This document shows, one piece after another, positions 28,029 through 64,000 of a stretch of 64,000 nt of DNA. Under the pieces are notes generated by a model. That model did not search any database and was not told the DNA's origin. It saw only the letters and a list, made by a program, of their open reading frames with translations. How positions within the stretch are numbered: the stretch's first letter is position 1; every line of letters begins with the position of its first letter. Both the position numbers and the translations under genes were made by a program. Source of the DNA: Cyanophora paradoxa CCMP329 (lineage: Eukaryota; Plantae; Glaucophyta); contig QPMI01000666.1 of the NCBI GenBank assembly GCA_004431415.1, forward strand, positions 62,001-126,000. The letters run 5' to 3'.

Positions 28029-29401
28029 TCAGCAGCTCGAGGATGCTGGTGTTGACGTTGCAGACCCGGCTGGTGTTGTATAACTCGGGCGGGTTGTAGT
28101 GGATCCCGAATGAAGATCACGGGCCCGGGGTCGCAAGTACTGCCCTGCGATCTGCTTCTCGATGTGGCGCTCCCTTGCCGCCTCCCGGGGGGGGTCCTTT
28201 GCAGGCAGGTAGCCTCCTTTGCCACCCCAGCTGCACAAGATCCCGTGCTGCCAGTCGTCGACCTCGACCACCACCACACGGTTGGGCCAGACGATCAAGC
28301 TTAACATGTCCGTCCATGCACGTTGGACGCTGATGCACATGACTTAGTGCGGCCGCAGGTCGACCGTGCAGTCGTAGAAGACAAATAGGAACATGGATGC
28401 CGGCAGCGTCGTGAAGAAGGCGGTCAGGAACGACAGCGGCAGCGTGGTGAGGAAGGCGGTCAGGAACGCCAGCAGTGGAGAGATCTCGAGGAGAAGGAGC
28501 TCGAGAGGACAAGGCATCGTCTCGAGATAGATCTAGAGGAGAGTCTGGAGGCTAGAGGTCTGGGGTCAGTGGCCAATCTCGCGCCTCCCTCCTCTGGCGG
28601 GACCCCGCGGCCGCGCGCCCGAGCTTGACACATTGATAGGCTCAATGTTCATCCTCGACCAGCTGGCACAGACAATGTCCAGCCCAAGAGATCAGACAAG
28701 GTCTACCACAGCTGAGCACAAGATCAGCTCCGGGGGGCGATGGGTCTCCCACGGCACATCTCCCACTTGAGGTCTCGGATTCTGGCCTCGGCCTCGGCTG
28801 CGGCCTCCCGCTCACGCTCCGCCTGCTTCGACCATGACCATGACCATGACCCTGAATCGAATCAAATGAACTGACCATGTAGGGCCTGTGTGGGAAGAGC
28901 TTGAGCTTCTCGGGCAGCGGCTCGTAGCCCTCGTAGCACAGCTCCACATACTCGCACTCCGGGGGTGCGCCGTCTCCAGGACGCGCTTGAGAGCCGTGAT
29001 GAGAGTCGCCGTGTCGGGGCGTTGGGGCTGCGAGTCGGGCGTTGCGAGTCGAATCATGCACATGAATGTAATTTGTTGGCTTCCCGTAGACCTGCTCGTC
29101 TGCCTCTGTGCTCGGACTCAATCAGGAAGCCTGCGAGCATGAATCGTACACGATCCGCAGGACCTGCAAGACATTGCCCGCGCCGTGCGCGAGCGCCCAA
29201 CGGTGCGCCCACTCGTAAAGCTCGTGGCGAACAATGAGCTCGTCCGACGCGCCGCTGCCGGGCGGGGGCGTGCGAGCGGGGAGGCCGGGCGCGGGCAAGA
29301 GATCGACGATGCCCTGGGGGAAGGAGCGCGGCGAGCGCTTCCCTCCTCTGCTCGGGCCCCGCGCGCCCGAGCTTGATGTAATTGATGGGCGCGATGTTCA
29401 T
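28029..29401 (-). pseudogene. Two tandem degenerate copies of a PD-(D/E)XK (EVD-x-x-x-H type) nuclease-like gene family
   Basis: Copy starts MNIAPIN (29401) and MNIEPIN (~28652) share DNA; 29072-29372 is near-identical (inverted) to 53238-53536; downstream DMLSLIVWPNRVVVVEVDDWQHG..EAARERHI..PVIFIR with a stop and a frameshift. Confidence 0.55.
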
Positions 29402-44396: not shown

Positions 44397-44535
44397 CGCA
44401 TTAATATTTGCACACGTGCTAAAACGCAGGTCCGGGCTACAAGTGTGGGAATGTACACTGCGGCCGCCGCGGCCGCGGGCCCAGCCCACCAGCGAGCTGG
44501 CGCCGGCCGGCCGGGCCCTGCGTGGCCCCCTAATG
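44397..44535 (+). repeat. Full copy of dispersed repeat R1
   Basis: CACGTGCTAAAACGCAGGTCCGGGCTACAAGTGTGGGAATGTACACTGCGGCCGCCGCGGCCGCGGGCCCAGCCCACCAGCGAGCTGGC..CCCTGCGTGGCCCCCTAAT. Confidence 0.85.
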
Positions 44536-47266
44536 AGAGTAATGCGCCTCCCCGCGGACACTCTGGCTAGCTAGAGCTACGTGTGCCCGCACGGCGTGGT
44601 GTCATCGCGTCTTGAAGCGGCCGGGGTCATCTCGGGGCGGTGGCGGGAGCCCCTATAGCTACGGGCCCTGGGGAGGGGGGGGGGGGGGGGCCGACATGTA
44701 CATGGAGTCGACGGAGTCGCCGCGCGCCGCGCGCCACGCGCCCGGGGCCCCGACCCGCCCCGCCCGCCGAGCCGCGCCGCCGCGCCGCGGCGCGCCGCGC
44801 CCCCGTCCCACCTGCCGAGCTGCGCCGCCGCCTGTCGCGCCTGGCGAGCCGCGCCGACCGCTGCCCGACCATCCCGCCCGTCACGGCGCCGACCTCGCGT
44901 CGCGCAGCCGGCCGCTGCGCGCTCCCGCGTGCCGCGCCCGGTTAGCACGGCGAGTCGACGTCGACGTCGCGGAGGGCCAGCTAGGACCGCGCGGGCCAGG
45001 CGCGCGCGGGGACACGCGTACGTATACGTATACGCGTACGGGAGCTCGAGGCCTAGGGCGGCGGCGCGCGCGGCTCGCCGGCAGAGCGGCTGCGCGATAT
45101 CGATCATGCTTAGCTGCACGCTGCAAGGCTGTAGGCTGCCGCGGTGCAGCCGCGTCTGCATAGCGCCCTCGCTATCGCTAGATCTAGACCTAGATCGCAT
45201 GCCGCAATGCCGCGCGCCTGGGTTCTGGGCGCCACTTCTGGCATGTTCTGCAAGCCTGTGTTGCCCCGGTGTTGGCGGACTCCAGGCGGACTCCTGGCGG
45301 AGCCGGGCCGGGCTACAGCAAAAAGACTTTTGCCGACGGAAAAAAGACCGACTTGCGAACTGGCCGACTTGGACAGCGTGACAGACAATCCGACGGGCCG
45401 GGTAGCAAGGGGGGTTTGAGCAGTTGACCCCCCCTTGCAATATATACGTACTCACCCAGGAAATTAAAGCCCTGCTTAGTTAACGTTCATCTTCCTGCGC
45501 TCTTGCTTTAATTTGTGAATGAGAATGCGACGCCATCGATATATATCCCGTACCCCTCATGAGCATCATGATCATGATCAACCACCTTGGCCCCCCCCAC
45601 AACTGGCTTGAACCTGCAAATTAATGCAAATTACACAAAGTTAAAGCACTCGCTTTAGAGAGTTGCAATTGGGACATGTACAGCCTGGCAGAGCTCGAGT
45701 AGGTGCGTAGCGCCTTGAAGCTGTACATGTGCAGAATTGAGCGTATTTCCTGTCATTGTTCACCCCCCTACCAACCGCGCGCCACCGGTGGGTAACTTAG
45801 TAACAGTCAGCGGGCGCCGGCCCCGGCCCACCAACCGGTACTGGCCATGGGTGCCCCGGGGTTGAGGTCGACTGCCAGGCTGTGCCCAGCCCTATATATA
45901 TCCATGGCCAGGTTCTTGAAGCCCCTACACCCTGGCATAGCATGTGGGGCCTTAGCCCCAGGTCTGTTCCCATTTACATAATACTTAGCCCAGACGTCGA
46001 CCTTATAATTATAATTAACTTATATTAGAAAGCTTGGCCATGGGCGCCGGCCCCGGGGACGTCGATGTGAATTCATGGCCATGGGCACGTTGACGTCGGC
46101 GTCCAGATATATCGATATCGATATCGATATCGATATAGTAACAATATATTAATAATGCTAAGCTTGAGCTCCCCTTAATTCCAACCTCTAGATCTAATCG
46201 TGCGCTCGTGCTAGCAAGGCCCCGGCCCGGTTATCTTAAAATTGTTTTAGCGCGGCGAATTCGAAACTGGATCACAATCGATATCGCGCTTATCTTAGGT
46301 CAGGGGGGTACAATCACGCGAGACCCGAAGAAGCCGCGGCCGCGGCGCCAGCTGCAGCTGCAGCTGCAGCGAGCCTCAGCAGCTAGCTCCAGATAACGTG
46401 CTACGTGCTCTAGCTACGTGCTCTAGATAACGAGCTAGCTCAGTGCCAGGAACCAGCGCTCGAGCTCCTAGGTCCGGCAAGAGTAACATGGATTCGACAG
46501 CGCAGTCCGTGAGATCGGACGCGCTTGCGAAGTCCTCGCCGCACCTGGCTGGCACGCTCAACATGACGGGAACGCTCTCAGCGAGCACCACTCTCCGCCA
46601 AACCTTTACCGTGCGCCAAATTCGTATCGCCGCTCAATGAAATCACTGAACGCACGGTCAGATCGGAAAAGACTGTAAGCAGAGCTCCGTGCGACTACCT
46701 GTGTTCAATGCGCTCGACTCATTGTCTTCGTAGACGATGCAGCTTTTTTCAAAGAAAGAAGCCTGCGGGGAACAGATCCAGGGCGAGCCCCGGTTATCTT
46801 CAATTTTTTTTGTATATCTAAATCAGATGCAGGAGCATGCTGTCCGCGCCTTACCATGCGCCTCGAGCGGGCTACCGCGGTCTGGCTCAGATTCCGAACC
46901 CATACGAAAGTCTTCCGTGCACATATGCAGGTCGACAAGGTCTGTCGTTCTCCGTGGCCTCGCAACCTGACTGTTTTTTCAGGAACAAAATGGAATCTCA
47001 TGGACTCGGAAGATGTCCGACCTGGTTTCGTTGCTTCGCACCATAGCATTCGTATGTTCGCCCCCATAACTATCCGCACTACATCCTGATGTACCCTGTC
47101 AGCTTGGCACAAAACGATGACACAGCAAATGCGAGAGTTCACCAACGATGACACAAAACCTCTGTAAAAGTTTCCAAACAGTTTCAGAACTGTTCAGAAC
47201 AGTTCCCAAAAGCTTCTGATCTTTCATGCCAAATAGCTAGCTAGGCTACTTGGCTAGAGCTATGTA

Positions 47267-47409: not shown

Positions 47410-48476
47410 AGGCGGTGCGTGCCCTTAAGCTTGCAAGCTTACGGGGCCGGTGTACAGTGTATGTCCCTGAGGGTGAGGGCCAGGGCTAGCCCTGGCCATG
47501 GGTCGCTGACACAGCACTTCAGCGCCGCGTTTTGCGCCGAGTTTGATTGTCTGGGGCCGCATGATGTCAGCATGATGCCGCAATGATGAAAAGTGATGCT
47601 TGTATGGAAATGGCCGCGTTTTGCGCACCAGGCAAGCGAGAGTCAACCATCTCTCCTGCAGGGAGTCAATCCAAGAAGCTTCGGCCGTCGTCGTCCGACG
47701 GTCACTTGTACCCCGTCGTCGCCGTGCCCCCGGCGTGCTCGGTTGCCAGTCGTGCCTTCTTCCTGCGTTTCTTGTCTCTCTGCGACGGGCGCGATGCAGC
47801 GCAGAGAGGCGCTTGTCGTCAAGGATAAGGTGCGCGTCGCCATTCTGTACGAGCTCGAGCGCTCTTCTGAGGTGCAACAGGTCACGGTCCAGTTGAAGGC
47901 CACTGGAATTCGAAATGCGCCGGCGCCAGCCCTCAAACAGACCAGGTTCAAGATAAATGCGAGTGATAACTTAGTAAGTTCGCCGTGCTCATCGAGTTTG
48001 TCCGGAAACGAGTGCAGCGCTGCAAAAAACGCCCGTGAAGCGCTGTGTGAGTCGGGCCAGGGCGGGGCCTGATGGCGTTAACGTTGGAGATCATCGGATC
48101 TAGATCTAGCATCCGATCGAAGCTAGCGTCACTGGGGTCTAGAGCTCATGCAGCCCACCAGCAAGCTAGCTAGGGCTGTAATTGGTCAGGGCAGCTAGCA
48201 GCTGGCTATGGAGTCACAGTTCCGCCAGCACTGCAGCTGGCCATGGTGTCACAGCCCCGCGCTTTTTCAACCAAATTTAACGACAGCCTGGTGAATGCCG
48301 TTTTCTGCCTTGCGATTCTGAGCAAAGTTGCAGCTCGATCATACAACACGAGTGCTACCATAAGAAAAATTCCCCGAACTGGGAGGACTGGTTTGAGACT
48401 CTACAAAAAGGCTACAGAAAGCCCGTGGTGAGGAAATGACTACCTTCTCTAATAACGCCCTCCGGTCGACGGGGGC

Positions 48477-51400
48477 TTACACGCGGGTGGGCGTGCCCGT
48501 GATGTACGAGCTGCCGCCAGTGTATCCGCCAGTCACGACCTGCTGGCTGGACATCTCGTAGGTCGACTGGCCGGTGGAACCGCCGACGTACACGTTGCGC
48601 GGGCCCTCCGCGGTCGCGCTGTGCCAATTGGTCAGACTGAGAAGACCCGGAGCCCAATTTAATGGAAAGAGAAAAGACCCACCCGCCGGGGGTGTAGACG
48701 CGGAAGAGGCGGACGGACTCGCTCTGCTGGCCGCCAGCAGCACCGGTCGCGACCGCGCCACCCTGGGTGCGGGTCTGCACGAAGCGCGGGGGCGAGCCGC
48801 CAGTCGCGCCGCCAGTGCCAGCGACACCGCCGCGGGTCGACACGTAGACGTTGCGGGTGGTGTTGTCCGACATGTAGGTCGGGAACTGCGCAAGGCAAGG
48901 AATGTCGTCAGGCGCGGGGGCGAGAGTGACAATCAAGGGCCGAGGGAAGAAGCGGACCTCGTCCCAGACAGAGCGGGTGTTGTGGCGGAGGCCGAGGTCG
49001 AGCTCGTACGGCTTCATGATGCCGAAGCGGCGGGTGAAGAAGTGCCACCGGTACATGAACAGGTTGAGGACCAGGATCCAGATGAAGGAAATGATCATAA
49101 GCGCCCAGCTGGCCGGGCCCATCATGAAGTAGTTCCAGTAGGCGCCGGTCTGGGCGCCCGCGCGGATGATGCCGATGAGGATCAGGTCGATCATCTCGAT
49201 GATGGTGTTGGTGATGTCGAGGATGTTGCCGGCGGTGTCAACGTACGGGTTGACGATGAAGAGGTACGCAAGGTCGATGGCCTCGATGATGAGGAGGAGG
49301 GCAATCTGCCACCAGAAGGTCGCGTTGCTGCCCATTGCGCTCCAGAAGGCGCCGAAGACGACACCCATGGCGTACAGCTTGGTGAGCTTGAGCGGGTGGT
49401 ACAGGTACGCCATGCGCTCCTTCTTGAACTTGCGGAAGAGGTAGCCGTGGTTCTTCATGCGCTTGCTCACGGTGCCCTTCTCGGCGCGGGTGTCGATCCA
49501 CTTGCCAACCTTGCGGCAGCACGGGTAGCACTCGGGCGAGGTCTTCTCGATCTCGGGGTCGCGGAGCGCCGGATCCGACGCGTAGGCAACCTCCTTGAAG
49601 TCGATCTCGCGGGAGCGGCCGACGCGCGAGACGAGGCCGGCGAACAGGAAGATGAGCCACAGGAACATGACGATGAGGATGAGGCAGGCGACCGGAGTCT
49701 TGTACGAGTGGCTGACGAGGCCGCGGACCGAGTACCACAGAACGCGCGACGAGTGGGCGACGGCGCCGAAGAGGGTCATCTGGAAGGCGATGTAGAGGAG
49801 CTTCCAGAAGCCGAGGCGGCCAGAGCCGCGCTCGAGGCTGAAGCAGTAGCGGATTAGGATGACGGCGATCGCGGCGGCGATCATGCCGAGGATGACAACC
49901 AGAGTCCAGAGGGCCGAGTTGGGGAACCAGGTGTACAGGTAGTCAACCGGGCAGGACTGGGCCTCGAGGGGCGGCACAGGGTGCTGCCACGAGAAGATGT
50001 GGCCGCCCCATGGGGTCTTGATGGTCTCAGTGGGCAGGGTGAACTCCCAAGTGAAGGGGAAGTGCAGGACGCTCCAGGACAGGCCATCACGGAACTGGTG
50101 CCACTCGAACGGAGTCGCGATGTCGAGGGCCAGGAGAAGGGCAAGGAACTGGACGAAGAAGATGAGAATCTGCAGAGCCGGCGTGAGTAGAACGCGGGTA
50201 AGGTGGGCCTGACAGGAGAAAAGAAGAACGGGCGCACGAACTCGTTGCCCGACTTGTAGCCGATGATGGTCATGATGATCGCGCAGAAAATGGAGATGAC
50301 GATGAGAACGGTGGCGATCGCAGCAAGAATAGTGGAGAGGGTCCAGCGCTCCCACTTGATGTTCCAGCGGGTGTCGACGACGCTCTGGAGGTCGGTCGTG
50401 GCGAAGCTGTACATGTACGCGCCAACGTTGCCGGGGCACCAGTCCTCGTTCGGGTCGGTCGGGGCGGTGCGGCGCAGGTAGGCGTTCGCGGAGATCTCCG
50501 GGGTGTTCGCATCCAGGACCGGCGCGTCCGAAATCTGGGCGATGTTGGCCGCCATGGTCTTGGGCATGAAGGGGTAAACGGTGTGCTGCCACTTGCGCCA
50601 GTAGTAGGTGTTGAAGATCGCGGGGAAGCGGCGCATGTAGCCGTACACGCCCTGGGTGGTCGACTCGAACTCCTTGAGGCGGACAAACTCGGGGATGTAG
50701 GTGTTGTAGCCGACCGCGGCCTGGCTGATTTCGGTGTCGGTCCAGCCGCGAACCGAAGCGCGGATGTCGCCATCGCTGAAGCCATCGACGGCGCTGCGGG
50801 TCTTCGCATCGTTGTTGCACTTGCACTTGGAGCCGTCCTCCTCGCACTTGGCCTGGGCAGTGTCGTCGTCCTTCTGGCACTCGCCGCACTTCTTCATGCA
50901 CTCGTCCGGGTTCGGGTACGGGCAGATGCACTGGGCCTTCGGCGGCGGAACGCAGTGGGTGGCGTAGATCGAGGCCGACTTGTCGGGCTGAAGGGCGAGC
51001 GCGTGAGATCCTATCACGCGCGGCTGCGCCGACCGAAACACCGCACCAGGATGAAGCCCTGGAAGCAAGCGCCGCAGACGGCGTTCTTGCCCTGGTTCAC
51101 GCACTCGCGGTTGACGCACGGGTTGCGAGCGTCGCACGGCTTGACTGCCCGGACAAGTGAGCGGCGAAATAATGTGCCGCGGTTGAGCGCGGCTCACCCT
51201 CGACGACGGTTGTGCCGTAGTGCACGTAGCTCTCAGTGTGGGTCTTCGACGACACGATGATGTCACCGGGGCCAGTGGTCGTGCCCGGGCCGGCCGTGAT
51301 GGTCAGCGAGCCGGGGGTCGCGCCGTCGGAGACGGACGCGCGCCAGCCCTGGACGGAGACCCAGTCAACATCGCCGGCGCCAGTGTTGAGGTTGTTGCCC

Positions 51401-53142
51401 TGTGCGTAACAGTCAATAAGCGAAACAAACATTTGCGAAAAGAGGTAGTAACGTACGGTAATGACGACGACGTCACCCTTGATGATGGAGAGAGCACCAC
51501 CCTCCTGAACGCGCTCAGTGGAGACGGACACGCCAGTGATCACACCCTGGGCCACGATATCGACGACGTTGCCGACGTTGTCAATGGCGAAGAGGTGGCC
51601 GGACGCGCGATGGAGCGCGAGACCGATCGGGCCGTTGAACGGCAGACCGGAGGCGAGGACCTCCTGCTTGCCTGCGGAGCGTTCAGGGTTCGGCTCTTGC
51701 TGCTCTCTAGACGCGAGCGGACACACCGCTGCGGAGAACGCGGTAGATCTTGTTCTCGCCAGGGGCCGCAACGTAGACGGTGCCCGAGAACGAGTCGACG
51801 GCGATGCCGTGGGCACCGTTGGTCGTCTTCAGAATCTCGCGGTCCTCGCCTGTGCGTGCGGAGTATCAGACACGCGCGAGGGCGGACGCCAGCGGCGTGG
51901 GCGAACCCGCAGTGAAGGTCTCCACCGGGGTCTCAACCAGGCGGCCAGAGCCGTCGAAGCTGTAGGAAACGAACAGGGCGCTGGTGGCTGTCGCCGAATG
52001 CTGGTGAGAGGGGGCAGGGCAGAGCAGGTCCCTTCGGGGCGTTGGGCGGGCGAACCCTGGCCGGTGTTAAGCGCGAACACCTTGTCGTGAGTCGCCTCGT
52101 TCGGGTAGTTCGCGGTGTACAGCAGGATGTTGCGCTTGAAGTTGTACGCCATCGAGGTGATGGTGAACGCGCTCTTCGCGTAGTCGGCGGACAGGTCCTT
52201 CAAGAGGACAGCGCGCTCTGCAACGCTATCAGAAGACCTGCAAAGGCTCTAAACAGAGCACATGCGCACGCTGGGTGTCGATCATAACGATGCGCGGGCC
52301 GTCGGCGACGAACACAAGGCCGCGGGCAAAGCCGATGGCCATGCCATCGATCTTATCGAACTTCGCGCTGGTGGCCGGAACGCCAGACGCGGAGGGCACG
52401 GACGAGCCGCCGCCACCGTACGCGGATACGGTGTTGGCTGTCGTGGTCCCGGGAGTTAGCGACCGCTGGTAGGTCCAGCGGCGGGAGACGCGAACGCACT
52501 GTCGGTATCGATCTTACGAATAAGCTTCGTGCCAACATCAGCGACGAAAAGGTCCTTCCCGTACGGGAAGAAAGCCAGGTACGTCGGCCTGGTGAGAACC
52601 GCAGCCGTTACACCGAGCTGACAGCACAGAGCGCGCTAATCGGGCGCACTTGTCGAAGGTAGCCGAGTACAGCGCGCCGTTGCTGGAACCAGAGGCACCA
52701 GTGCCGGCGTAGTCCTTCAGCTCCTTGGCTGACAGGTGCAAATCCGTTAATATCAAAGAAAACGCCCGCAGCGACGCCTCGGCGCGTCCCGCACGCACAG
52801 ATGAGGTTGAAGCTCTTAATCTTGTTCTCCTGGGGCACAGCGACGAACAGGGTGGTCCCGGTGGCATCCGGGGTCACCCACGTCGCACCTGCGACGAGCC
52901 GCGCGAACCGGGCCGCAAAACATCAGCACGGCGACTGCAAAGGAGTGTTCGAATGCTTATATTTAAATCGGAGACGCTGCGGCAAGGCCGACGCCGCGAC
53001 GAAGGCCGGACGGGCGGAGGTTCGCACCATCGACCTTCCCGGCGCTGTTGATGGTTCCGATGGGCGAGTCATCGGCCAAGACCAAGGGCAGCACCAGGGC
53101 CAGGGCCGCCAGCGCGGCGACCGCCCGGAACCGCGCCATCAT
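48477..53142 (-). CDS. Large membrane protein: signal peptide, beta-propeller-like repeats, IPT/TIG-like and Cys-rich/EGF-like modules, C-terminal TRP-like (Flc/Pkd2-type) multi-TM domain
   Basis: MMARFRAVAALAALALVLPLVLA; VLASGLPFNGPIGLAL; ITGVS..VVVIT.GNNL..VSVQG; KPCDARNPCVNRECV; ILIFFVQFLALLLALDIATPFEWHQFRDGLSWS; HGYLFRKFKKE..QIALLLIIE..LFIVNPYVDTAGNIL. Confidence 0.72.
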
Positions 53143-53210
53143 CTTTTTTTCCGGTCGAACTTAGAGCACTAACTTATTTGGTCCTACCCCCATTGCTCCG
53201 GCGAGTCACA

Positions 53211-54175
53211 ATGCACACCTCCGGCAACATCAAGTACACGGGCGCGCGGGGCCCGCGCGGAGGAGGCAGGCGCTCGCCGCGCTCCTTCCCCCAGGGCATC
53301 GTCGATCTCTTGCCCGCGCCCGGCCTCCCCGCTCGCACGCCCCCGCCCGGCAGCGGCGCGTCGGACGAGCTCATTGTTCGCCACGAGCTTTACGAGTGGG
53401 CGCACCGTTGGGCGCTCGCGCACGGCGCGGGCAATGTCTTGCAGGTCCTGCGGATCGTGTACGATTCATGCTCGCAGGCTTCCTGATTGAGTCCGAGCAC
53501 AGAGGCAGACGAGCAGGTCTACGGGAAGCCAACAAAGTTCAGCAAAGATCGAAAGCGCCCGGGTGCATGCTTCTTTCGCGTTTGTCCTGCTCGCAGACTT
53601 CCTGAGCACTTCGTCGCAGACTTCCTGATTGAGTTCGAGCACTTCGTCCTTGTGGTGGAGGTGGACGAGCGCGGCCACGGGCGCACCAACGTCTTCGCTC
53701 GGCGCATCATGAGCGCCGCGCTCCGTTACAGGCGCTCCGCGGAGCGCGTTCGGATGCTCAAGCTCTACGAGCAGATCCTTGAGGTTCGTCTGGTAAGAGG
53801 CGCAAGCGGGAGGAGGAGATAATGCGGGAGAGACGCAGGCGGGAGGAGGCCAAGGCCGCAGCCGAGGAGCGCAGGCGGGAGGAGGCCAAGGCCGCAGCCG
53901 AGGAGCGCGAGGCGAAGAGGAGGAGGCGGGAGGAGGCCAAGGCCGCAGCCGAGACCCGGGCCAAGGCCGAGCCAAGACCCGAGACCCGAGACGCGGAGCG
54001 GGAGGCGGAGCGGGAGGCGGAGCGGGAGGCGGAGCGGGAGGCGGAGCGGGATGCGAGGAGGCGCCGCGCGCGGGAGAAGCAGTGGCAGCGGGAGGCGGGG
54101 GCGGGAGGCGGGAGGCGGGGGCGGGAGGCGGGAGGCGGGGGCGGGAGGCGGGAGGCGGACCGTGGCAACCCATAG
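53211..54175 (+). pseudogene. Intron-containing PD-(D/E)XK nuclease-like gene copy (disrupted) with E/R/A-rich repeat tail
   Basis: Removing the 57-nt GT-AG intron 53563-53619 gives KRPDFLIEFEHFVLVVEVDERGH; in-frame stop at 53486 lies in an internal duplication; 53238-53536 matches 29072-29372. Confidence 0.6.
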
Positions 54176-54871
54176 GGGCTCGCTGAGTTGTGGTAGACCT
54201 GTGGATCCTACACTGTGGAAAGAAAAAACGCGCCGCTCCCTGTAAAGAACTAGTTTGCGTCCGCAATTGCGGTCCGCAATCAAAATCGGTGCGCTCCGAG
54301 GCCCCGCCATAGTGCTGGACCGACGCATGCGTGTAATACAACGGTGCGGGGACCGGGGCGCCCATCACTGCACTGCGCATGCGCATGCGGCAGCCGCTGA
54401 GCTGGGCCAAGCCAAGTTTGAATTCGAATTCACCAGTGACTGCCGCAGTGCGCGCGCGCGCGGCGCTGGTACAGCTCATTTGCATGAGCATATGCATGCA
54501 GCTAACGCTAGTGCGTGCGAACTAGTTAAAGTGCGGCGGCTGATCGCCGAGTCGGTAGCTTCACACCGATATCGATCGCGAGTCACATGCATGCGCATGC
54601 GCACTGCAGGGCCGCATGCCGCAGTGCGCAGGGCACCGATTCAGGGCCCGGGGGCACTGCAGTGCCACGGTGAGCAGGGCACCGCAGGGAGCTCCTACGG
54701 GCTCTGCAGCTGGGGACTGGACCCGATCGCGACCAATTGCAATTCACGCAAGGCCTTCGAATTGTAGATCTAGATCTAGATGGCCACCTCGCCCAAATTA
54801 AATCCCATCCAACCAAAAACAACCCTCGCATCGCATCTGGCATTCAAGCTCTAGACATCTAACGGAATGCT

Positions 54872-57230
54872 TCAAGGATTGCTGGTGTTCGTTTTCCGCG
54901 AGCGGCGGCCCTTCGCAGATTCCTTGACCTCCTCAACCACCTCGTCAAGCTGCTCCTCAAGGGTTAGAGGGGCGCGATTGGAGCGGGCTCCCATGTGAAG
55001 AATGCCTTGCTCGTCCTCCAGTGCCCAAACCTGCTGACTGGTGATCAATCATGAAGGGAGCACGAGTCTGCCATACAGACCTGATTGTGCGCAATGAAAG
55101 ACGCAGCAGATGAAAGCATGAGGAAGCCAAAGCCAGCATAGACTAGCGGAATGCCAGGGTCATCTTTGATCTGTAGCTTCTTGTTAGATTATGTTCGTAC
55201 TTTGATGCGACGTGCAGACCTGAAGGCCTGTGGCACCAATCATCTCCTTGAACTGCACATTAATACCATCGAGCTGCAAGCAAGAAGTCACTATTGCCGA
55301 AGCCATTTACAACGGTTGGGCTATGATATTGCACCTCGAGATTCATGCCAGGGCGGATGACGCTGTTCATCGACCCCTGCAGCCGCGAATCATTTCCATG
55401 ACAGTCCGGAAAAAGATGTCAAAGAGAAACTGACATCTTTGTTGTACACAAAGATGTTGATCATGTCCTTCGCCACGATGGGATAGCCTTCTGACATGTC
55501 AGGCTGAACAGCGCTAGTTAGAGATAGCCAAGACGACTTCAAGACTTCAAAGCCCCTTTTCACCTTCGTGGGCAGGAAGCCTCCCCACACTTCGGCCTTT
55601 TTCCCAAGAGCCTCGAGGCGGGCCATGGGAATGAGAAGGTCGGGGGAGTTGTTCAATTTCACAACGATTCCATAAAGGCTCCAGCTTGTCTGATAGAAAG
55701 TCATGCCCTGGTACCTGTTAAGGAAACAATTAATCAGTTTGATGCCGCAGAGGTAATGAGGCCGTACCGCATGGGTTTGTTAACGTGAATCTCTTCCTGG
55801 CGAACTTCCTTTCCATCCTTGTCGAGGGCAGAAATAATCGAGTGGAATTGGTCCACACGCCCATCGTCGGCATAATCGATCCAGAAGCGGTTGGCTCGCA
55901 TGATGAGGCCATTCGGAAGCCGACCCTCTGCAAGCGGGCCCGCGCTTACGATGTTATCAATGGTGAAATCCAGACCGGCAGGGATAAGCTCTGTGGCTCG
56001 GGTCAGACGTCCAGCACAACAGACCAGAGATGCAGTGCTGAGCGCACCCTGTGCCATCCAGCCGAAAACAGACCCGCCGATGGCGCCAGCAAGGACGAGG
56101 AGCATACTTATGTGCACAAAAATTGGAGCGACCTTCCCGATGACTCCCTTTGTACCATACAGCACGCTGCCTTCTTGGTGCACCTCGTACCCGCGCTTCT
56201 GCAGAGCTGCGGCAAGGTCCTCTTTCGCGCCGTTCTCGATGCGAGCCGCCAGCGGGTCTAATCGCCTGAACTGCTCAGGGCGTGTGTAGTACTTCCACTT
56301 GCGGGCGAGCCTGCCCATAGTATGAAGGCTGTGGGCCCCTTCCAGGCGGCAAAAGGAGTCTCACTTGAGAGCCGGAAGCTGTGTAGTGAAAGAGCAGGCA
56401 GTGAGGGAGGAGCCGAAGAGGATGAGCAGACCGAGGAACCACCATGTGCTATAGACGTGGTCCAGCCCCGCACCAAGGACCACCTACGCTCGAGGAATGC
56501 AATGAGGAAAGCAATCTATTTTGTAAATAGACAGTTGTGAGAGATAGGTACCTTCCAGGTCAGGAAGCCGTACAGGGCCGGCGACTCGGGGAAGTTCTGC
56601 ACGTAGAAGTCTGCTGCTTGCTCCTGCACGCAACGCGATTCGGTATGCCATACGCAAATCGATACACAGTACGCGCGACAATCCCTGCACCTGCGTGATG
56701 ATGGTGCCTAAACTGCTGCATGCCGCTATGAGCACCAGCTCAGCGATGGCGAGGCGGAGATCCGCAAGGCGCGGGACGATCTGACGTCGACCAAACGATA
56801 CAAATTTCTCAAGAGGCGATTCCTGCGAATTTTGGGGGTTAGCCGGCCACAACGAGAGAAGTAGCTAAAAACACGGCCAGCGAACCGAGGACGGGGAGAC
56901 GCAGAAGACGGACGGCAGCGCCAAGGAGCCTCGCTGTGTTCGCATCCTATGTAAAGCAGGCTGCAATACCGCGAACTTTCGGAACGACAGCCGGGACCCG
57001 TGCACCGCTTGCCGCCCGAACCGCTCGCTCTTCTGAGAACAACTGGGGACGGCGCCGATAACTCTGTGATCCGCGCCGGTGAGCACAACATGCGCCGCTG
57101 TCGCTGGTGCGCAGTGCGCCCGCCAGCTCCCTGCCGCCCGCGCTGAGGCAGCCAGAGTGATTGGTGCGACGGCGAACGCCGAGGCGCGCCGGCGCGCGGC
57201 CGCCGCATGACTCGACTCCGCGAACGACAT
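54872..57230 (-). CDS. CCS1: Cytochrome c biogenesis protein Ccs1/ResB (system II), nuclear-encoded, plastid-targeted
   Basis: [26 protein letters not shown]; [34 protein letters not shown]; [22 protein letters not shown]; FWIDY..VDQFHS; IHVNKPMRY; TFYQTSW; [18 protein letters not shown]. Confidence 0.92.
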
Positions 57231-57795
57231 CGCGCGGCACACTAGTACTGCAGCTGTGGCAGATCTAGATCACAGCTGCAGTCGACGTCGACGTCGACGT
57301 CAGGCTGCAAGTTAGATTTTCTGGGGTACACAGGCCAGAAAATGTTGCAGTTCCACGAACTATAAGCCTTCCTATATACGTGGGCCTTTGTGAAGCGTTG
57401 AGCTCTCGAGCTTGCCCCTTCGCTGTCAATGCATTGTTAACCCTCGGAGGTTGCATGAGTCACGCGTCGCGGAGGTTTGGGTGTTATATTGCGATCAGGT
57501 ACACGCTGCACTAACAGGGGGGCTAGCACTAACCGACGCGGGGAGTAACAGCCGGTGTACCCCTCGGGGGGCCTCCCGGCCTCTAACGATGCTCAGGCTC
57601 TAACTGAATGCTGTACCCCCCGCTGTTACTGCCCGAACCTTCCGAACTTGCGTAATTCGGCCTCGCCCTGTACCCAGTGGCTGGTGTCGTCCATCCATTC
57701 GCGTACCTCCCTCTGACGCTTGAGTGACTCACGCTGCTCGGGGGTAGGGGAGGGGGGCCTTCGAGGCGGGTGGGGAAGGGGTACGGTGGCAAAAT

Positions 57796-58361
57796 TCAGC
57801 CACTCGGGGGTATGCCGAATTCGCCGTGAACGATCCTCTGCGGTGTGAAATACCGGTCGCTGCTCACGGCCAAGTGGAAGAACGCGCTCCTGAGCCCGGA
57901 GAGGAAGCGTGGTTGCATGAATGGCTGCTGGAGGGACTCGTCGCGCCAGGGGGCTACGAAATCAATGATACGCTGCTGTACCTGCGCGGGCAGGGCAAGG
58001 ATCTGGCTCTTGCGGTTCGCAAAGGCCGTCCACAGCGCTTGCAGGTCGGCCCAATCGCCGTTCAGATCCCTGCGTTCGCGCCTCAGGTACGATCTCGGGT
58101 TCTCTGTCATACCCATCAAGCCCGCGGCCCTGATCATCTCCCTGTCCGGGAGCTCTCGCTCGTCGTGGAATTCGTCTCTAATCCAGCGCACAAGGTAGAG
58201 CACGCGCTCCATGAAGTTCTCCGCCGGCGAGCCGCCCCTGAGGACGTGCGCCTCCCCTCCAGCACTGCGTTCGCATCCTCCAAGTCCACGTTCCGCTGTC
58301 GAATCTCCCCGTCCAGGTCGCCGTTGTTGTACAGCACGTCGGACTCGCGTGTTCGCGCCAT
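57796..58361 (-). CDS. Orphan protein B (one frameshift near 58250), paralog of the upstream ORF A
   Basis: MARTRESDVLYNNGDL.. then ENFMERVLYLVRWIRDE..LALPAQVQQRIIDFVAPWRD..FLSGLRSAF. Confidence 0.55.
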
Positions 58362-58395
58362 GCTCGCGGCTCGGTGAGAATTTATACCTGTACCC

Positions 58396-59091
58396 CTACT
58401 CGCGGTCGGGGTACCTGTCGCCGGGCATCAGCCTCGCGCGCTTCCGCATCTCCGCCTCCCCGGGTAGCCAGTTCTTCGGGTCGTTGCTCCACTCCTCCCA
58501 TTCGCGTATGTCCCGTCTGACGTCACGCGGGGCGGGGCGTTTATCGGTGGGCGGGCGGGGCTGGCAGGGCCTGGCGCGGGGGTTGAGGCCCCTGTTCCAC
58601 GAGTACTCGGGGTACTCTTCCCATCCCAGGGGTACCAGATTCATCGGAATTGGCTCAACTTCGAATTGGGGCTTTTTGACGTGATAATCATAGTTTGTGA
58701 CATACGCCGTCACAGCCGAGCGCAAGCGCGAGAGGTCGCGCAAATTTACGTCGTCCCATTGCGAGTCCCTTGCCTTCGCGTACCACTCGAGGATTTGCAT
58801 GCGAATGTGGTCCGGGAGGGTCGAGAGTATGCTGAGCTTGGAGCCCAGGGCGAACCAGATGCGCTTGAACTCGTCGATAATCCTGCCCTCGTCGTGGCTC
58901 CGAACGTAAAGGGCCCCGCCAGAGTTGTAATGCGTGTCTAGCCACCCTGCCCGGGCCAGCTCTAGCACCGGCCAGGGTTGGCGCTGTCGATTCGGTCGCG
59001 AGGCCTGCTCTACCACCCAGCGTCTAAGGTCCTTGACCTGATCTATGAACTGTGCGATCACGTCCCTGGGCGCTTCCTCTGCATCCGACAT
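58396..59091 (-). CDS. Orphan protein A (231 aa), intronless
   Basis: Uninterrupted ORF MSDAEEAPRDVIAQFIDQVKDLRRWVVEQ..; divergent from YqaJ with only 50 bp between the ATGs. Confidence 0.7.
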   Translation of the reverse strand: MSDAEEAPRDVIAQFIDQVKDLRRWVVEQASRPNRQRQPWPVLELARAGWLDTHYNSGGALYVRSHDEGRIIDEFKRIWFALGSKLSILSTLPDHIRMQILEWYAKARDSQWDDVNLRDLSRLRSAVTAYVTNYDYHVKKPQFEVEPIPMNLVPLGWEEYPEYSWNRGLNPRARPCQPRPPTDKRPAPRDVRRDIREWEEWSNDPKNWLPGEAEMRKRARLMPGDRYPDRE

Positions 59092-59141
59092 TTGCAATTG
59101 CACACATCAAGAAATTCTAAACGCTACTGCGAGGCTACGCT

Positions 59142-59798
59142 ATGCATACCGATACAAATTGCGAGACTTTGCAACAGGGGAGCGCAGCGTGGCACGCGGC
59201 GCGCCGTGAAAAACTAACTGCATCTAATTTTGCGGCTGCGTGCGGCATAAACCCCTGGAAATCCAGGGCCCGCCTGTGGGCGGAGCTAAGCGGGATAGCG
59301 GAGGAAAACAACTTTGACAACCCTGCCCTAACCTATGGGCATGACTATGAGCCCCTCGCGGTCTCTCTCTACAAGGCACTGAACGATAACGTGGACATTC
59401 AACACACTGGACTGCACGAACACAAAGAAATGCCGTTCCTCGCCGGGAGCCCCGACGGACTGATAGGAAATGATAGGATTTTAGAGGTGAAATGCCCTTA
59501 CAAGGGCGAACTTTACGATAGCGTTCCTACCTATTACATGACTCAACTTCAGGGCCTGCTGGACATAACGGGCCGCGAGTGGGCCGAACTTTTTTGCTTC
59601 ACTCCTCTGTGCGTGCAAACGTGGTACGTCAGACGGGACGAGAGGTACATCGAGCTCATGCGGCGGTGCTTACATCTATTTTGGATGCACGTGAAGGCTG
59701 GAACTCCGCCCGAGCCCTACAGCGATCGAATGAAGTCAGAGAACCTCAGCGAGGAGCAGGCGGCGCTGCGCGAGTTTAAGTCGTACGCCCTCCTCTAG
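59142..59798 (+). CDS. YqaJ-like viral recombinase / lambda-exonuclease family nuclease, intact
   Basis: QQGSAAWHAARREKLTASNFAAACG; YGHDYEPLA; FLAGSPDGLI; LEVKCP; YYMTQLQGLL. Confidence 0.93.
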   Translation: MHTDTNCETLQQGSAAWHAARREKLTASNFAAACGINPWKSRARLWAELSGIAEENNFDNPALTYGHDYEPLAVSLYKALNDNVDIQHTGLHEHKEMPFLAGSPDGLIGNDRILEVKCPYKGELYDSVPTYYMTQLQGLLDITGREWAELFCFTPLCVQTWYVRRDERYIELMRRCLHLFWMHVKAGTPPEPYSDRMKSENLSEEQAALREFKSYALL

Positions 59799-60135
59799 TG
59801 TCCCGACCCTCTCAGATATTAATTTAAAGATCTGGGAGGGTCGGGACACGTCTCTTGGTCAGACTACTTATGTACGCCCTCCTCTAGTGTCTCGACCCTC
59901 TCAGATATTAATTTAAAGATCTGGGAGGGTCGGGACACGTCTCTTGGTCAGACTACTTATGTACGCCCTCCTCTAGTGTCTCGACCCTCTCAGATATTAA
60001 TTTAAAGATCTGGGAGGGTCGGGACACGTCTCTTGGTCAGACTACTTATGTACGCCCTCCCTCCTCTAGTGTCCGGACCTTTCCAATAATCTATAAAGAA
60101 AGTAGGGAGGGTCCGGACACGTCTCTTGGTCGGAC
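59783..60135. repeat. Tandem array of 89-bp units, each with a 20-bp-arm palindrome around an AT-rich spacer (three near-identical units + one diverged)
   Basis: Units start at 59783, 59872, 59961 and 60050; GTGTCCCGACCCTCTCAGAT-ATTAATTTAAAG-ATCTGGGAGGGTCGGGACAC. Confidence 0.95.
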
Positions 60136-60415
60136 TCACCGTAGCTTGGTGTAGCTCAGGCCCAGGCGGGGAAGGCGAGTCTGCAATGAATCAGACCCCA
60201 CAGGATTTGGTTGAGCTGCTCTTTGCAGGGGGGCAGGAAGGCGGCCGCAGAGGGCTAGGGAGACTAGATCTAATTAGTAATCCCACACCGCGCATGTGCA
60301 AGCGACAGAGAACGAAGTGAGTAAATGCAGATCGATGATACGGCAATCATGAGTTGTTCAGAAAAGGTCGGGACACATAGAGAGTGCATGCCCTCACTCT
60401 CGTCCGCCCTCGCAA

Positions 60416-60465
60416 TGTCCCGACCCTCCCAGATCTTTAAATTAATATCTCAAAAGGTCGAGACA
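60416..60465 (-). repeat. Inverted solo copy of the array palindrome (plus a half-site at ~60365-60376)
   Basis: TGTCCCGACCCTCCCAGATCTTTAAATTAATATCTCAAAAGGTCGAGACA is approximately the reverse complement of the unit-2 palindrome. Confidence 0.9.
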
Positions 60466-60566
60466 TTCATTGATCATATGCATGACGTCACTTGAATTCG
60501 CACGTTCGTATTTACACACTGGCACGCGCATCCCGTTCGCGAAGTCCACACTGTGACATCCGACAA

Positions 60567-63500
60567 TCACACGCGCCTGTGAATGAGAGCATAGCAGTCG
60601 GAGAAAACGTTGTAAACCTCTGGGAAGCTTGGCGCCATGCCTGCCCTTGCCTGCTTAGCCTGGCGCTCTACTGCGTCGTCGAGCATGTCTTCCTCCCACG
60701 TGATGTAGCGTCGCTTTCGGCTGCCCATTTGCCCTCCGTCCGCGTCGGAGAAAGCGCGTCTCACTCCGAGGTACTTCTCCAGCAGGTACTTGATGACTTG
60801 CCAAGACTGCTGCGAGAGCCGCTTCTTCTCACCGTCCGCTGCATCGAAGCGGGGCGCGCGCTCGTCCAGACTCTGCAGAGCCGCGTACGCCTCCCGACCC
60901 TCCGGCGACGCCAGGGCCGCGTAGGCTTCGTCCGACCACAGAGCACGCCCCGCGAGCTTTCCATACCCCGCCAGCCGAAGAGTTTCTTGAACAGCGCGAC
61001 GACCTTCGATACCTTGAGGCGCTCAGCAGTAGGCACGATCTCGGCAACGTCCGCGCCATGCTTCAGCACCAGCGTGACCACGGCAGTGAGCGGGATGGAG
61101 TAGAACGAATCCCACATCCAGGCGACGTCTCCTTCGGTCAGCTCGCTCGGATCCTTGGCCAGGAACGCGGCGATCGACGTGCGAGCAAGCGAAGCAACCT
61201 TCTCGATGTCCAGCTTAGCGAGAGACTCGCGGGACTGCCTCCAGGCCAGCACCGTGCTCCACAGATCGACGGGCTCCAGCGCGCCCGCCTCCAGCACGCT
61301 CCTGATCTCGCGCAGCCGCTGCTCCTTCTCCTGCTTCGGTCCGCTCGGGTTTTGATCCTCCGTGACTTGCACGTTCATCAGCGCGCAGGTCGACATCAGC
61401 CGCAGGCGCGCTGCCACTGCGAGGCGCCGAGTGGGCATGCCGGCGCGGCGGCTCCCGCGGTGGCTAGCCTTCAGGTCCAGGTAGCGCTGCATGTCGTCCG
61501 AGCTCTCGTCGTCGTCGCTCTCACGCCAGTGCGCAGCCGCCGCGCCGACCGCAACCGAGGGCGTCCGGTTCTTGCGCACGGCGACGAGCAGGTGCTCCCC
61601 GTCGGGCGTGCTGCGTTTGCGCAGCCTTCTGACTCGAAACAGCAGCTGCACGATGTCGTCCGCCTCCAGCTGCGCGGGCTCCGCCTGGAACACGCCGTAG
61701 ACCTTGTCAAAGTGCGCGTCCGAAAAGTCCACGCCTGCCCCGAGCGCGGAAGTTGCGATGAGCACGTCGCAGGCCTTGTACGCGCCCTCCTCAGACACAT
61801 CGATCGACACGATGCCCACAGATCGACGGGCTCCAGCGCGCCCGCCTCCAGCACGCTCCTGATCTCGCGCAGCCGCTGCTCCTTCTCCTGCTTCGGTCCG
61901 CTCGGGTTTTGATCCTCCGTGACTTGCACGTTCATCAGCGCGCAGGTCGACATCAGCCGCAGGCGCGCTGCCACTGCGAGGCGCCGAGTGGGCATGCCGG
62001 CGCGGCGGCTCCCGCGGTGGCTAGCCTTCAGGTCCAGGTAGCGCTGCATGTCGTCCGAGCTCTCGTCGTCGTCGCTCTCACGCCAGTGCGCAGCCGCCGC
62101 GCCGACCGCAACCGAGGGCGTCCGGTTCTTGCGCACGGCGACGAGCAGGTGCTCCCCGTCGGGCGTGCTGCGTTTGCGCAGCCTTCTGACTCGAAACAGC
62201 AGCTGCACGATGTCGTCCGCCTCCAGCTGCGCGGGCTCCGCCTGGAACACGCCGTAGACCTTGTCAAAGTGCGCGTCCGAAAAGTCCACGCCTGCCCCGA
62301 GCGCGGAAGTTGCGATGAGCACGTCGCAGGCCTTGTACGCGCCCTCCTCAGACACATCGATCGACACGATGCGCACTGGGCCCTCGTTCGTGAAGCGCAC
62401 GCTCTTCTCCTTGGCCTGCCCAACGATGAGCCCGATCGTGAACGGTGCGCCGCTGCCGTCCTCGGGCCCTGCCTCGAGCTGAGTCACGTACTGAGCGCCG
62501 CCCAGGCTGAGCTGCTCCAGCGCCTGCTTCGCAATCTTCTCCTGCAGCTCGATCGCCTTGGCCGGCGTCTCCGCGATGATCATGGCCCGCGAGCGCCCAG
62601 GTCGGCACTGCACCATGATGTCCGCCTCGACGTGCGCCGGGCTGTCTGACACGCGCATCTTCCAGTCGCAGGTGCGATGCGAGTTGTACAGGAGCCCCAG
62701 GCGCGCCCCGACCTCCTGCGCCGACTCTGCCAGGTACGCGAGATCGACCGACCGAACGAAGCCGTCCATCGCCACGATGCGCGATGCCTTCATCACGCCG
62801 CGCCATAGGCCCACGCAGCGCGCGTTTCGAGGCACTGACCGCATACCTAGGTGCAGGCCGGTGGGCTCGAGGGTGCCGCTCGAGGTGAGGTGCTTCGTGA
62901 GGGAGGAGAGCTCGTCCAGCACGACCAGTAGCGGCGCCGTCGACCAGCCCTCCCAGTCCTCGAGCACCTTGTGCAGCGAGTCCCATGTGATGACGACGCA
63001 CCTGCACTCCTCATGGCGGAAGCCCCACTTGCCATGCGATCCCTTTGAGCTCTCCGGTGGCTTCTTGATGTCCATGTAAAGCACGGCGTCCTTTGACAAC
63101 TCCGCAGCATCAATGCGACGCTTGAGGTCGCGGGAGAAGGCCCGGCGGCAAGTCACGAGGATCACTCGCCAGCCGCCTGCGAGGGCCGGGTCCAGGTACG
63201 CATCGATCAGCGCCTGCGTCTTCCCCGTGTTGAGTCCCGAGCAGATGACGTCGACCTGCGGCTGAGCGGATCTCGGGTTCTGCTCCAGCGCCCCGAATGC
63301 GGAGGTAAGGATCTTGCACGAGAGGTGGCGTTCATCCACTGCATTGACGCAAGCCTCCAGGCCCGTCGACTCGAGCGCGATCAGGAGGGAGGGGAGGGCA
63401 ATGTCGAAGGCGACAGGCTGCGAGGGATCGGTCACATAGCGGGTCTGTGCCACGCTGCCCGACTCCCCTCCGGTCCCCTCCCCTCGAGCTCGACTTCAAT

Positions 63501-63995
63501 ACCGTGCGCCTGGATGGAGATTCGAGCCGCCGGCGCCCCCGGCTGACTCCCGCCCAGGACGAGGGTGATGGACCCGTCGGGCTCGACTCCAAGGTGCTGA
63601 ACGCGGCGGGCGTCGTGCAGGCCAAGGTCCGCGCGCAGCTCTGCCCCCGCCTTCCAGATCTCGTCCCTCACCGCCTTGTTCTTGCGCAGGCGGTCCAGGA
63701 GCCGCTCCAAGGCCGGCAGGCTTGGGCTCGAATCCAGGAGAGCGCCCGGCTCCGGGATGGGCTTAGCGCGGGGCGCCGAGCTTCTGGATGGAGTGGGGAG
63801 GAGCTCCGCTCGCGGCCCGGGCGCCGGCCCCGCAGAACGTAGCCCCCGTGCCATCCACACCGAGCTCCAGGCCGCTCGAGCTCCCAAAGAACCATGCCAT
63901 GAGATCGCAAGCCTCCGGGCTCTGTAGGACGTAGGCAGCCTTGAATCCATTATCCAAGGGGCGAGAGAAAGTGAAGCCTCCGAACTTGGTTGCAA
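60567..63995 (-). pseudogene. Replication origin-binding protein-like (herpes UL9/NCLDV-type) SF2 helicase, disrupted by frameshifts and a 557-bp duplication; N-terminus probably beyond the window
   Basis: Walker A CSGLNTGKT; RVILVTCRRAFSRDL; VITWDSLHKV; Walker B LVVLDELSS; RIVAMDG; DVLIATSALGAGVDFSDAHFDKVYGVF; DIVQLLFRVRRL. Confidence 0.8.
61259..62372. repeat. Essentially perfect 557-bp tandem duplication inside the helicase ORF
   Basis: 61259-61815 is repeated at 61816-62372; the same peptides appear twice in the ORF track; 557 is not a multiple of 3. Confidence 0.95.
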
Positions 63996-64000
63996 AGGCG

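Follow-up and report, generated by a model that had tools for sequence, protein, structure and literature searches.

A multi-copy element of Cyanophora paradoxa with a UL9/CyRepA1-type helicase and candidate palindromic origins

Results

Main finding

The stretch analysed (the window) is 64,000 nucleotides of contig QPMI01000666.1 (positions 62,001–126,000, assembly GCA_004431415.1) from the glaucophyte alga Cyanophora paradoxa CCMP329. At its right end lies a cassette of four genes, encoding orphan proteins B and A, a YqaJ-family nuclease and a superfamily 2 (SF2) helicase, with an array of palindromes between the last two. The cassette is the left 6.6 kb, the only part within the window, of a repeated, integrated element. 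The data support a mobile, multi-copy element with some 30–45 genomic copies. The best explanation, to which we assign a probability of about 0.45, is that a UL9-type helicase serves this element as a replication initiator acting on the palindromes and that the element is likely capsid-less. The origin–initiator part of this reading is quite probable, and the capsid-less part has about even odds.

The order and strands of the genes (orphan B and orphan A on the minus strand, YqaJ on the plus strand, the palindrome array, the helicase on the minus strand) had been proposed in a sequence-only reading of the window and were confirmed in the sequence (Table 1). Below, X1 and X5 denote short-read DNA runs, X15 and X17 denote runs presumed (by guess) to be RNA, P-numbers denote proteins or gene models and L-numbers denote viral contig loci.

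Left end and copy number of the element

Contig depth rises at the left end from 18.7 to ~670 in X1 and from 121.7 to ~5,070 in X5. This step places the start of the element at 57,371–57,373, where the sequence-only reading had given 57,300. Single-copy contigs run through Ccs1 into the cassette from 54,147 (X1) and 54,129 (X5) without a differing letter, and terminate in both runs at 57,402, about 30 bases inside the repeat; the span 54,147–57,402 sits at single-copy depth. Contiguity with Ccs1 was thus established by bridging contigs in two runs. The proposed check of read depth gave a cassette depth of 27–49x over the Ccs1 contig in X1 and 31–43x in X5 (six long contigs in each run), the summed contig depth being a rough measure of copies. 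This copy number agrees with the presence of helicase models on 26 named contigs and of orphan A models on 18. At 57,371, at least one further copy is flanked by other sequence. Dispersed copies, a discrete end and differing flanks, the marks of an integrated multi-copy mobile element, were therefore all found.

EukProt gene models of Cyanophora paradoxa account for all 14 helicase matches, for both YqaJ clusters of highest identity and for each of the 9 orphan A clusters; near-identical proteins (95–100% identity) are among them. A helicase model was found at the next accession number for 9 of the 14 listed YqaJ accessions, so that the expected linkage of the two genes was seen at 8 other loci; this count (at least 8) is a lower bound, with four accessions shown per protein.

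At 57,394–57,453 the contig depth is 50x and 58x versus 33x and 38x just inside, i.e., the terminal depth is 1.5 times (and not 2 times) that of the interior, a ratio that argues neither for nor against terminal inverted repeats. No left-end hairpin of the Helitron/Replitron kind was found in the terminal 90 nt (fold z 0.18), and the fold of 57,530–57,645 gave z −2.5. No HUH Rep was matched among the window open reading frames (ORFs) scanned with Pfam, which represent the left part of the element.

Table 1. Features of the element and its left neighbour (window coordinates)
Feature	Position	Strand	Basis or remark
Ccs1 (ResB family) exon, single-copy host gene, left neighbour, outside the element	55,734–56,318	-	PF05140, E=1.4e-23
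Left end of the repeated element	57,371–57,373	.	Depth step; ~430 bp upstream of where Ccs1 probably begins
Non-coding terminal region	57,373–57,625	.	First 80 bp common to further subfamilies; weak hairpin at 57,540–57,635
Orphan B, 246 codons with X at breaks, paralogue of orphan A	57,626–58,361	-	Pairwise alignment
Orphan A, ~231 aa, repeated with the element	58,396–59,091	-	9 clusters, one source, 18 named contigs
YqaJ/lambda-exonuclease-family nuclease, intact	59,142–59,798	+	PF09588, E=1.7e-28
Pair of introns in an RNA read from the minus strand, opposite YqaJ	59,607–60,139	-	CT..AC joints
Array of 89-bp units x 3.9, each with a 52-bp imperfect palindrome; candidate origin	59,783–60,136	.	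Tandem Repeats Finder, period 89
Half-site (~60,363–60,377) and inverted fifth palindrome (60,416–60,465) beside the helicase stop	60,363–60,465	.	Arm motif scan
Spliced RNA from the strand opposite the helicase; probably non-coding	60,500–64,000	+	GT-AG joints
UL9/CyRepA1-type SF2 helicase with a C-terminal origin-binding-like domain	60,567–64,000	-	At least 959 codons; start past the window; four single-base breaks
Exact tandem duplication of 557 bp inside the helicase	61,259–61,815 = 61,816–62,372	.	557/557 bases identical

The helicase

The assignment of the helicase to the Herpes_ori_bp/UL9 family was borne out. PF02399 matched the frame over residues 64–191 only (E=7.1e-9, 34.8 bits versus a cut-off of 20); among the related gene models, P0002, P0006 and P0011 scored above the cut-off and P0009 below it. 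In a PDB sequence search, UL9 chains were the top four of six matches (E 0.0014–0.0016), with motifs I–Ia and V–VI aligned. The UL9 variants of the motifs are present, namely C-R-R in motif Ia (the residues discussed for UL9 in PMC12543377), GxxF-HFD in motif V and QxLxRVR in motif VI. The Walker A motif is SGLNTGKT and not GxGKT, as had been read before. Atlas features also point toward PF02399-bearing clusters (0.97–0.98).

The motor likewise matched CyRepA1 in six plasmid records (tblastn). The CyRepA1 profile NF042913 gave 32–59 bits in all six motor-containing sequences, which is below its cut-off of 200, and hhalign aligned the motor with CyRepA1 at 97% over 319 columns with 27% identity. 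Judged by sequence comparison, the motor is as near to CyRepA1 as to its herpesvirus and giant-virus relatives, and the earlier framing in terms of these two groups was too narrow. Trees were indecisive on this point: in an 11-row tree the helicase joined CyRepA1 (86/91), whereas a quick tree of 23 rows placed it beside giant-virus rows (SH-aLRT 78), with the four Cyanophora rows forming a long branch between the giant-virus and the plasmid/phage rows. The CyRepA1 grouping was not rejected by the approximately unbiased (AU) test (p 0.226). The rows were drawn from groups other than herpesviruses and mriyaviruses, and L108 and L110 were omitted as non-helicases. The tree cannot choose between a giant-virus and a CyRepA1 affinity, and since it leaves both groupings standing, an origin from the plastid endosymbiont is not claimed.

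The full-length model of the helicase was poor (predicted local distance difference test score, pLDDT, 41.9), and its N-terminus was not confidently folded. Searches with this model returned generic SF2 folds, among which the origin-binding protein (OBP) was tied at Z 10.1 and had the highest identity (23%). The C-terminal 276 residues gave a moderate model (mean pLDDT 53.6), whose best match among 48,161 chains was residues 580–827 of the herpes simplex virus 1 (HSV-1) OBP (9hgi_A; Z 6.9, root mean square deviation 4.1, 140 aligned residues). This was the sole chain at Z of at least 5, and the next one reached 4.6. The modeling thus lends moderate support to a UL9-like origin-binding fold of the C-terminal domain.

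An N-terminal primase–polymerase had been expected, and at the sequence level it was not found in the N-termini of the sister subfamilies. No archaeo-eukaryotic primase (AEP) was matched with Pfam, PHROG or NCBIfam in P0009, P0011, P0014 and P0098 where these were scanned, and no acidic motif is common to the subfamily N-termini; a degenerate primase domain is possible. The giant-virus and mriyavirus relatives retain the AEP primase (PMC11253617; bioRxiv 10.64898/2026.08.29.747986).

Helicase gene models fall into four subfamilies (about 99.8, 75–78, 65–67 and 50% identical to P0086), and all motifs are kept in these diverged subfamilies. In the window copy, the helicase and both orphans are broken by single-base gaps in G/C runs. 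At least 12 single-base differences were found in such runs, and every covering X1 contig carries an extra base at 10 of the 12 listed. Counted from the window edge, 959 codons of the helicase frame contain no stop once X is placed at four breaks and the duplicated segment is read a single time. Because the extra bases are present in the short-read contigs of the repeat, the helicase family is taken to be intact, and the frameshifts of the window are probably long-read errors; private damage is possible, since contigs drop rare variants. The 557-bp duplication, which is skipped by one X15 contig and almost uncovered in X5, is either a copy-specific event or an assembly error.

A word search for relatives of the helicase gave 14 matches, all from a single source. 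A phmmer search with P0006 over 1.84 billion representatives gave five matches, namely four of the word-search ones and a 91%-identical fragment, and none outside the family. No relatives were found in the viral contigs, GTDB genomes or phages.

Palindromes and rearrangements

The palindromes of the array have GC-rich arms and an AT-rich, asymmetric centre. The first copy begins at the YqaJ stop codon, and in the fourth copy both arms are altered in step. The folds of three copies gave z values of −9.9, −5.1 and −3.4, and none of 200 shuffles was as stable. Three long hairpins were found in the element, one in the window's remaining 57 kb and none in any of 20 resampled sequences; thus, the array noted earlier is real and goes beyond chance. 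The inverted palindrome beside the helicase stop is 94% complementary to the array copies. A further copy was found ~330 bp past position 64,000 in contigs of three runs (joint 60465 to 64000), so that the helicase gene is bracketed by palindromes. Other inter-copy spacers occur among the joints and loose ends and may belong to a right-hand array or to other subfamilies. The palindrome pattern had no matches in the viral contigs. A single sub-threshold match of the hairpins to an Rfam miRNA family was taken as chance.

Placed on the cassette, three of the gene models show back-jumps, and an X17 contig repeats one of them (62,476 to 58,549). In addition, at two loci a YqaJ gene 95.7% identical to that of the window adjoins a helicase that is only 65–67% identical. 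These observations suggest that the element recombines and that its helicase gene can be exchanged; unequal rates of change are an alternative. Amplification centred on the origin was considered and found to be unsupported, the YqaJ depth being split between subfamilies.

The YqaJ nuclease and the orphan proteins

The assignment of the nuclease to the YqaJ family held (Table 1). TIGR03033 gave 99.3 bits (versus 68.05) for P0015, a protein near-identical to the window YqaJ, and the catalytic motifs of the PD-(D/E)xK fold are present (GHDYE, GSPDG, LEVKCP and YMTQLQ). The closest sequence from outside, P0016, is a metagenome protein 64% identical over the whole length on a contig of 1,912 bp, which points to a related element, harboured by a different host or existing as a free virus. 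The next relatives, found in IMG/VR, are 33–45% identical (top 46 loci) and lie among genes for the capsid protein of the nucleocytoplasmic large DNA virus (NCLDV) type, A32 ATPase, VLTF3 and RuvC. At least one such marker was present in 74 of the 80 loci, with A32 only in many of the weaker ones. Going by the gene table of PMC11253617, we read the top group as gamadvirus-like. In the tree, the window YqaJ pair is sister to this group (FastTree 0.96) on a long branch (1.36), in a sample biased toward that group. A single-sequence scan of the viral contigs with YqaJ gave no matches, and a scan of JGI metagenomes gave 19 loci, mostly 29–42% identical and none close. No UL9-like ORF was found in the 99 YqaJ loci, and PF02399 was found in one of the nine whole records examined for YqaJ-bearing contigs.

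Several observations concern these contigs and the nuclease subfamilies. The 67-kb viral contig L107 carries both a YqaJ relative (L056) and a frame of 1,729 codons for a UL9-like helicase (L107:4313-9499, G005). Many IMG/VR contigs (L001–L054, L061) share a gamadvirus-like block of capsid, YqaJ-like nuclease, a gene resembling single-stranded DNA-binding protein genes, A32 and VLTF3; two of them, L021 and L030, come from one source. At 59,393–59,549, a diverged YqaJ subfamily accounts for about half of the DNA depth and most of the X17 depth. This hints that the YqaJ subfamilies differ in transcription, contig depth being no proof of it.

Orphan B resembles orphan A (25% identity over 210 residues, pairwise E=2e-12). 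Neither could be assigned to a known family; no Pfam or PHROG family was found for orphan B and no usable Atlas match for orphan A. Against nine profiles built from gamadvirus-like viral loci, the orphans and the N-terminal pieces scored no better than shuffles. The foreign N-terminus of the gene model P0001 was tried as a virion gene and matched nothing.

Antisense transcripts

The cassette had been described as intronless, which holds for the sense frames but not for the opposite strands, which are spliced. Over the helicase, at least 11 GT-AG joints were found in X15, ten of them of 49–65 nt; 6 of the 11 also occur in X17 and none in X1 or X5. The spliced plus strand contains 11–20 stops per frame, and its longest open stretch is 305 codons. 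Since there are stops in every spliced frame, this transcript is probably non-coding. Opposite YqaJ, at least two joints were found, 59606/59674 (X15 and X17) and 59715/60139 (X15 only), and the second intron, of 423 nt, removes the palindrome array. These RNAs may have a regulatory role.

Host surroundings

Ccs1 was confirmed as the neighbour (Table 1). To its left, at 53,200–54,200, lies a second repeat of lower copy number (depth ~2–10x), with a 97.7% identical partial copy at 29,072–29,379. It contains a short frame with the motif VVEVDExGH, which we presume to be similar to viral restriction-fold endonucleases; the frame had no match in Pfam or PHROG. A similar fragment, VVVEVDDWQH, was noticed by eye on the minus strand at ~28,240–28,320. 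Palindromic hexamers are dense in host intergenic DNA (88 per kb at 54,200–54,800 and 62 per kb at 57,000–57,370) and number 12–36 per kb in genes and in the element. A long multi-exon gene for a membrane protein occupies 48,412–53,172 on the minus strand, with a match to transient receptor potential (TRP) channels below the cut-off (E 0.0056). Short dispersed intergenic repeats, 73–89% alike, were found at 17,354–17,449, 26,295–26,398 and 44,433–44,528, as well as at 27,904–27,949 and 45,908–45,953.

Discussion

Proposed mechanism and its support

In the proposed mechanism, the helicase would bind the arms of neighbouring palindromes, with its C-terminal domain presumably reading the arm sequence, and would melt the AT-rich centres, at which host polymerases would start replication. 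As no primase was found, the element would rely on the primase and polymerase of the host. The role of the YqaJ exonuclease would be end resection for recombination by strand annealing, and it might carry out insertion too; such recombination would account for the tandem junctions inside copies and for the exchange of helicase subfamilies. The antisense RNAs, which are spliced, would dampen the two genes.

The presence of palindromes with paired arms round an AT-rich centre on both sides of the helicase was counted for the origin–initiator reading. CyRepA1 is required for the replication of the plasmid pSYSA (PMC9978351, PMC10899382). With regard to the capsid, PF02399 is listed in none of 156 glaucophyte capsid-anchored Polinton-like elements versus 15 of 34 streptophyte ones, and elsewhere in 9 of 1,393 elements from rhizarians, 3 of 89 from ochrophytes and 2 of 126 from chlorophytes (PMC12220804 Table S6, counted by hand from its columns). 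The earlier notion of a self-replicating element stands insofar as the element is mobile, multi-copy and replicon-like, helped by the C-terminal fold match; it may be a virus or a transposon.

A number of results weigh against this reading. The RVKNL motif, by which orthoherpesvirus UL9 recognizes its target (PMC12543377), is absent from the aligned helicase sequences. The C-terminal model is modest, and a Z below 8 can reflect a common arrangement; a Foldseek search of this model on viral models gave no significant match (best E 0.18), several giant-virus origin-binding proteins being among the near-top ones. Two of the four tandem junctions considered (that of the window and that of P0012) exclude palindromes, so the rearrangements do not single the palindromes out as origins. 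The depth can be explained by integrated copies alone, with no sign of an episome. Besides P0016, the closest YqaJ relatives reside in capsid-encoding viruses, and Cyanophora paradoxa itself carries 366 capsid genes of endogenous viruses (PMC10120064) and giant-virus insertions (PMC12344493). Weak matching by Pfam, together with gene calls that are broken, could account for the count of 0 in 156. In the gene-dense genome of this alga, introns are generally short and transcripts generally overlap (PMC6704402), and the antisense splicing may be ordinary read-through.

Alternative explanations

An endogenous virus with capsid genes further to the right is nearly as likely as the capsid-less element. 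The cassette would then be the left arm, with the virion genes past the window, of a capsid-encoding endogenous DNA virus of 15–45 kb, mriyavirus-like or undescribed, whose replication is driven by the origin–initiator module. Intronless frames and terminal paralogous orphans are common in viruses, and both are seen here in the sense frames and in orphans A and B. The quick tree with the helicase beside giant-virus sequences points the same way, and so do the best YqaJ matches, which sit in a gene set of the kind described for gamadviruses (PMC11253617) with its markers in most loci, as well as the UL9-like helicases of some mriyaviruses and some Polinton-like elements. However, the YqaJ alignment is dominated by the gamadvirus-like family itself, and the window YqaJ is on a long branch. 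Moreover, an intact AEP primase is retained in the SF2 helicases of mriyaviruses, and the helicase of gamadviruses is of the SF3 type (PMC11253617), neither of which was found here; the orphans and N-terminal pieces fit the nine viral profiles no better than shuffles do, no relative of the helicase occurs in the viral contigs, and the glaucophyte Polinton-like elements of PMC12220804 list no PF02399.

It is improbable, on balance, that the palindromes are instead recombination or resolution sites that bound the helicase as an invertible or exchangeable cassette, with the enzyme encoded elsewhere. Their inverted copies do bracket the helicase, their centre is asymmetric and oriented, and helicase subfamilies are swapped beside near-identical YqaJ genes; we also take paired arms round an asymmetric spacer to be the layout of recombinase sites. 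Yet the Pfam scan revealed no recombinase in the window, the adjacent helicase keeps a predicted C-terminal fold like that of origin-binding proteins, and a tandem array of four would fit iterated origins better. The two roles are compatible and do not exclude one another. A defunct piece of a giant virus or of a plasmid, spread passively by segmental duplication of the host, would agree with the frameshifts and internal duplication of the window copy, with the antisense transcripts over both genes and with the giant-virus insertions of the species (PMC12344493), but is very improbable given that the short-read contigs restore the frames of the family at 10 of the 12 listed breaks, that the four subfamilies keep all motifs and that the left end is sharp and has different flanks. 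As for contamination or a mis-join, several assembly-type errors do occur in the window; this explanation is already largely refuted, and its probability is negligible, by the bridging single-copy contigs and by the finding that all 20 runs containing the stretch represent one organism.

Taken to its full extent, the preferred reading of a capsid-less mobile element with its own initiator would amount to an undescribed class of eukaryotic mobile element, namely a small plasmid-like nuclear replicon that combines a UL9/CyRepA1-type initiator lacking a primase with palindromic origins of its own and an exonuclease of the lambda type. Such a replicon would multiply and insert through recombination, with no transposase, would exchange its helicase gene between palindromes and would be kept in check by spliced antisense RNAs. 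We regard this full version as rather unlikely. If the origin model is true, a herpes-style pair of initiator and origin would be available in a harmless alga that can be cultured, on a deep branch between the initiators of giant viruses and of cyanobacterial plasmids, and an origin-binding domain and its palindromic target would travel together outside the herpesviruses. The element would then allow a direct test of UL9-type initiation that has no primase and draws on enzymes of the host, and a replicating vector for use in glaucophytes might be derived from it. Should it also have neither capsid nor transposase, it would represent a novel kind of mobile DNA in eukaryotes. In any case, surveys anchored on capsid genes have missed a family of 30–45 copies that has spliced antisense transcripts.

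Comparison with known systems

No description of the element was found in the literature searched, which extended to sources other than subscription journals and preprint supplements; the main text of a 2026 preprint on a framework for Polinton-like viruses mentions no UL9, SF2, YqaJ or Cyanophora. Compared with UL9/OBP and oriS of herpes simplex virus (PF02399; PDB 9hgi; PMC12543377), the element has the same variants of the SF2 motifs and a similar predicted C-terminal fold; in both, no primase is seen in the helicase and paired arms surround an AT-rich spacer, which is the candidate target here. The differences are an identity of ~23% in the first motor domain, the lack of RVKNL and an extra N-terminal region of 300 residues. 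Further, no polymerase, single-stranded DNA-binding protein or capsid is seen in the window, and the element is integrated in tens of copies.

In the case of CyRepA1 (NF042913; Slr7037 of pSYSA; PMC9978351, PMC10899382), one Rep protein and an adjacent cis region support replication, with an antisense RNA nearby, and the motor cores can be aligned. However, the element reaches 59 bits at most with this profile, CyRepA1 has a predicted primase domain, and the element is eukaryotic and nuclear. Also, the antisense RNA of pSYSA overlaps the upstream ssr7036 and not the Rep gene.

UL9-like helicases are present in some mriyaviruses (SF2_hel of Yaraviridae; PD-(D/E)xK nuclease of gamadviruses; PMC11253617), as in the R8 system of mimivirus and the pF1055L system of African swine fever virus (ASFV), and mriyaviruses, which have no DNA polymerase, hold the closest YqaJ-like sequences found. 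In contrast to the element, the SF2 helicases of these viruses bear an AEP primase, and the capsid, A32, VLTF3, RuvC and HUH genes of mriyaviruses were not seen in the window, whose orphans match none of nine gene families. Protists also contain endogenous Polinton-like viruses (PMC10120064, PMC12220804), which are likewise multi-copy, intronless, integrated and abundant in the same species, and some of those in other organisms carry PF02399. The 156 glaucophyte elements tabulated differ in having an rve integrase (85 of them) with pPolB, D5 or Pif1, and none lists PF02399 (PMC12220804).

We do not assign the element to the herpesviruses, to CyRepA1, to the AEP primase-helicases, to the mriyaviruses or to the Polinton-like viruses. 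Two further systems resemble it in part. The hr regions of baculoviruses are dispersed arrays of imperfect palindromes that act as origins, although the element has no baculovirus genes. The Y' element of yeast has a helicase of another family, and no evidence of telomere linkage exists for the Cyanophora element; Y' is nevertheless also a repeated nuclear element with an SF2 helicase, its own origin and both tandem and circular forms.

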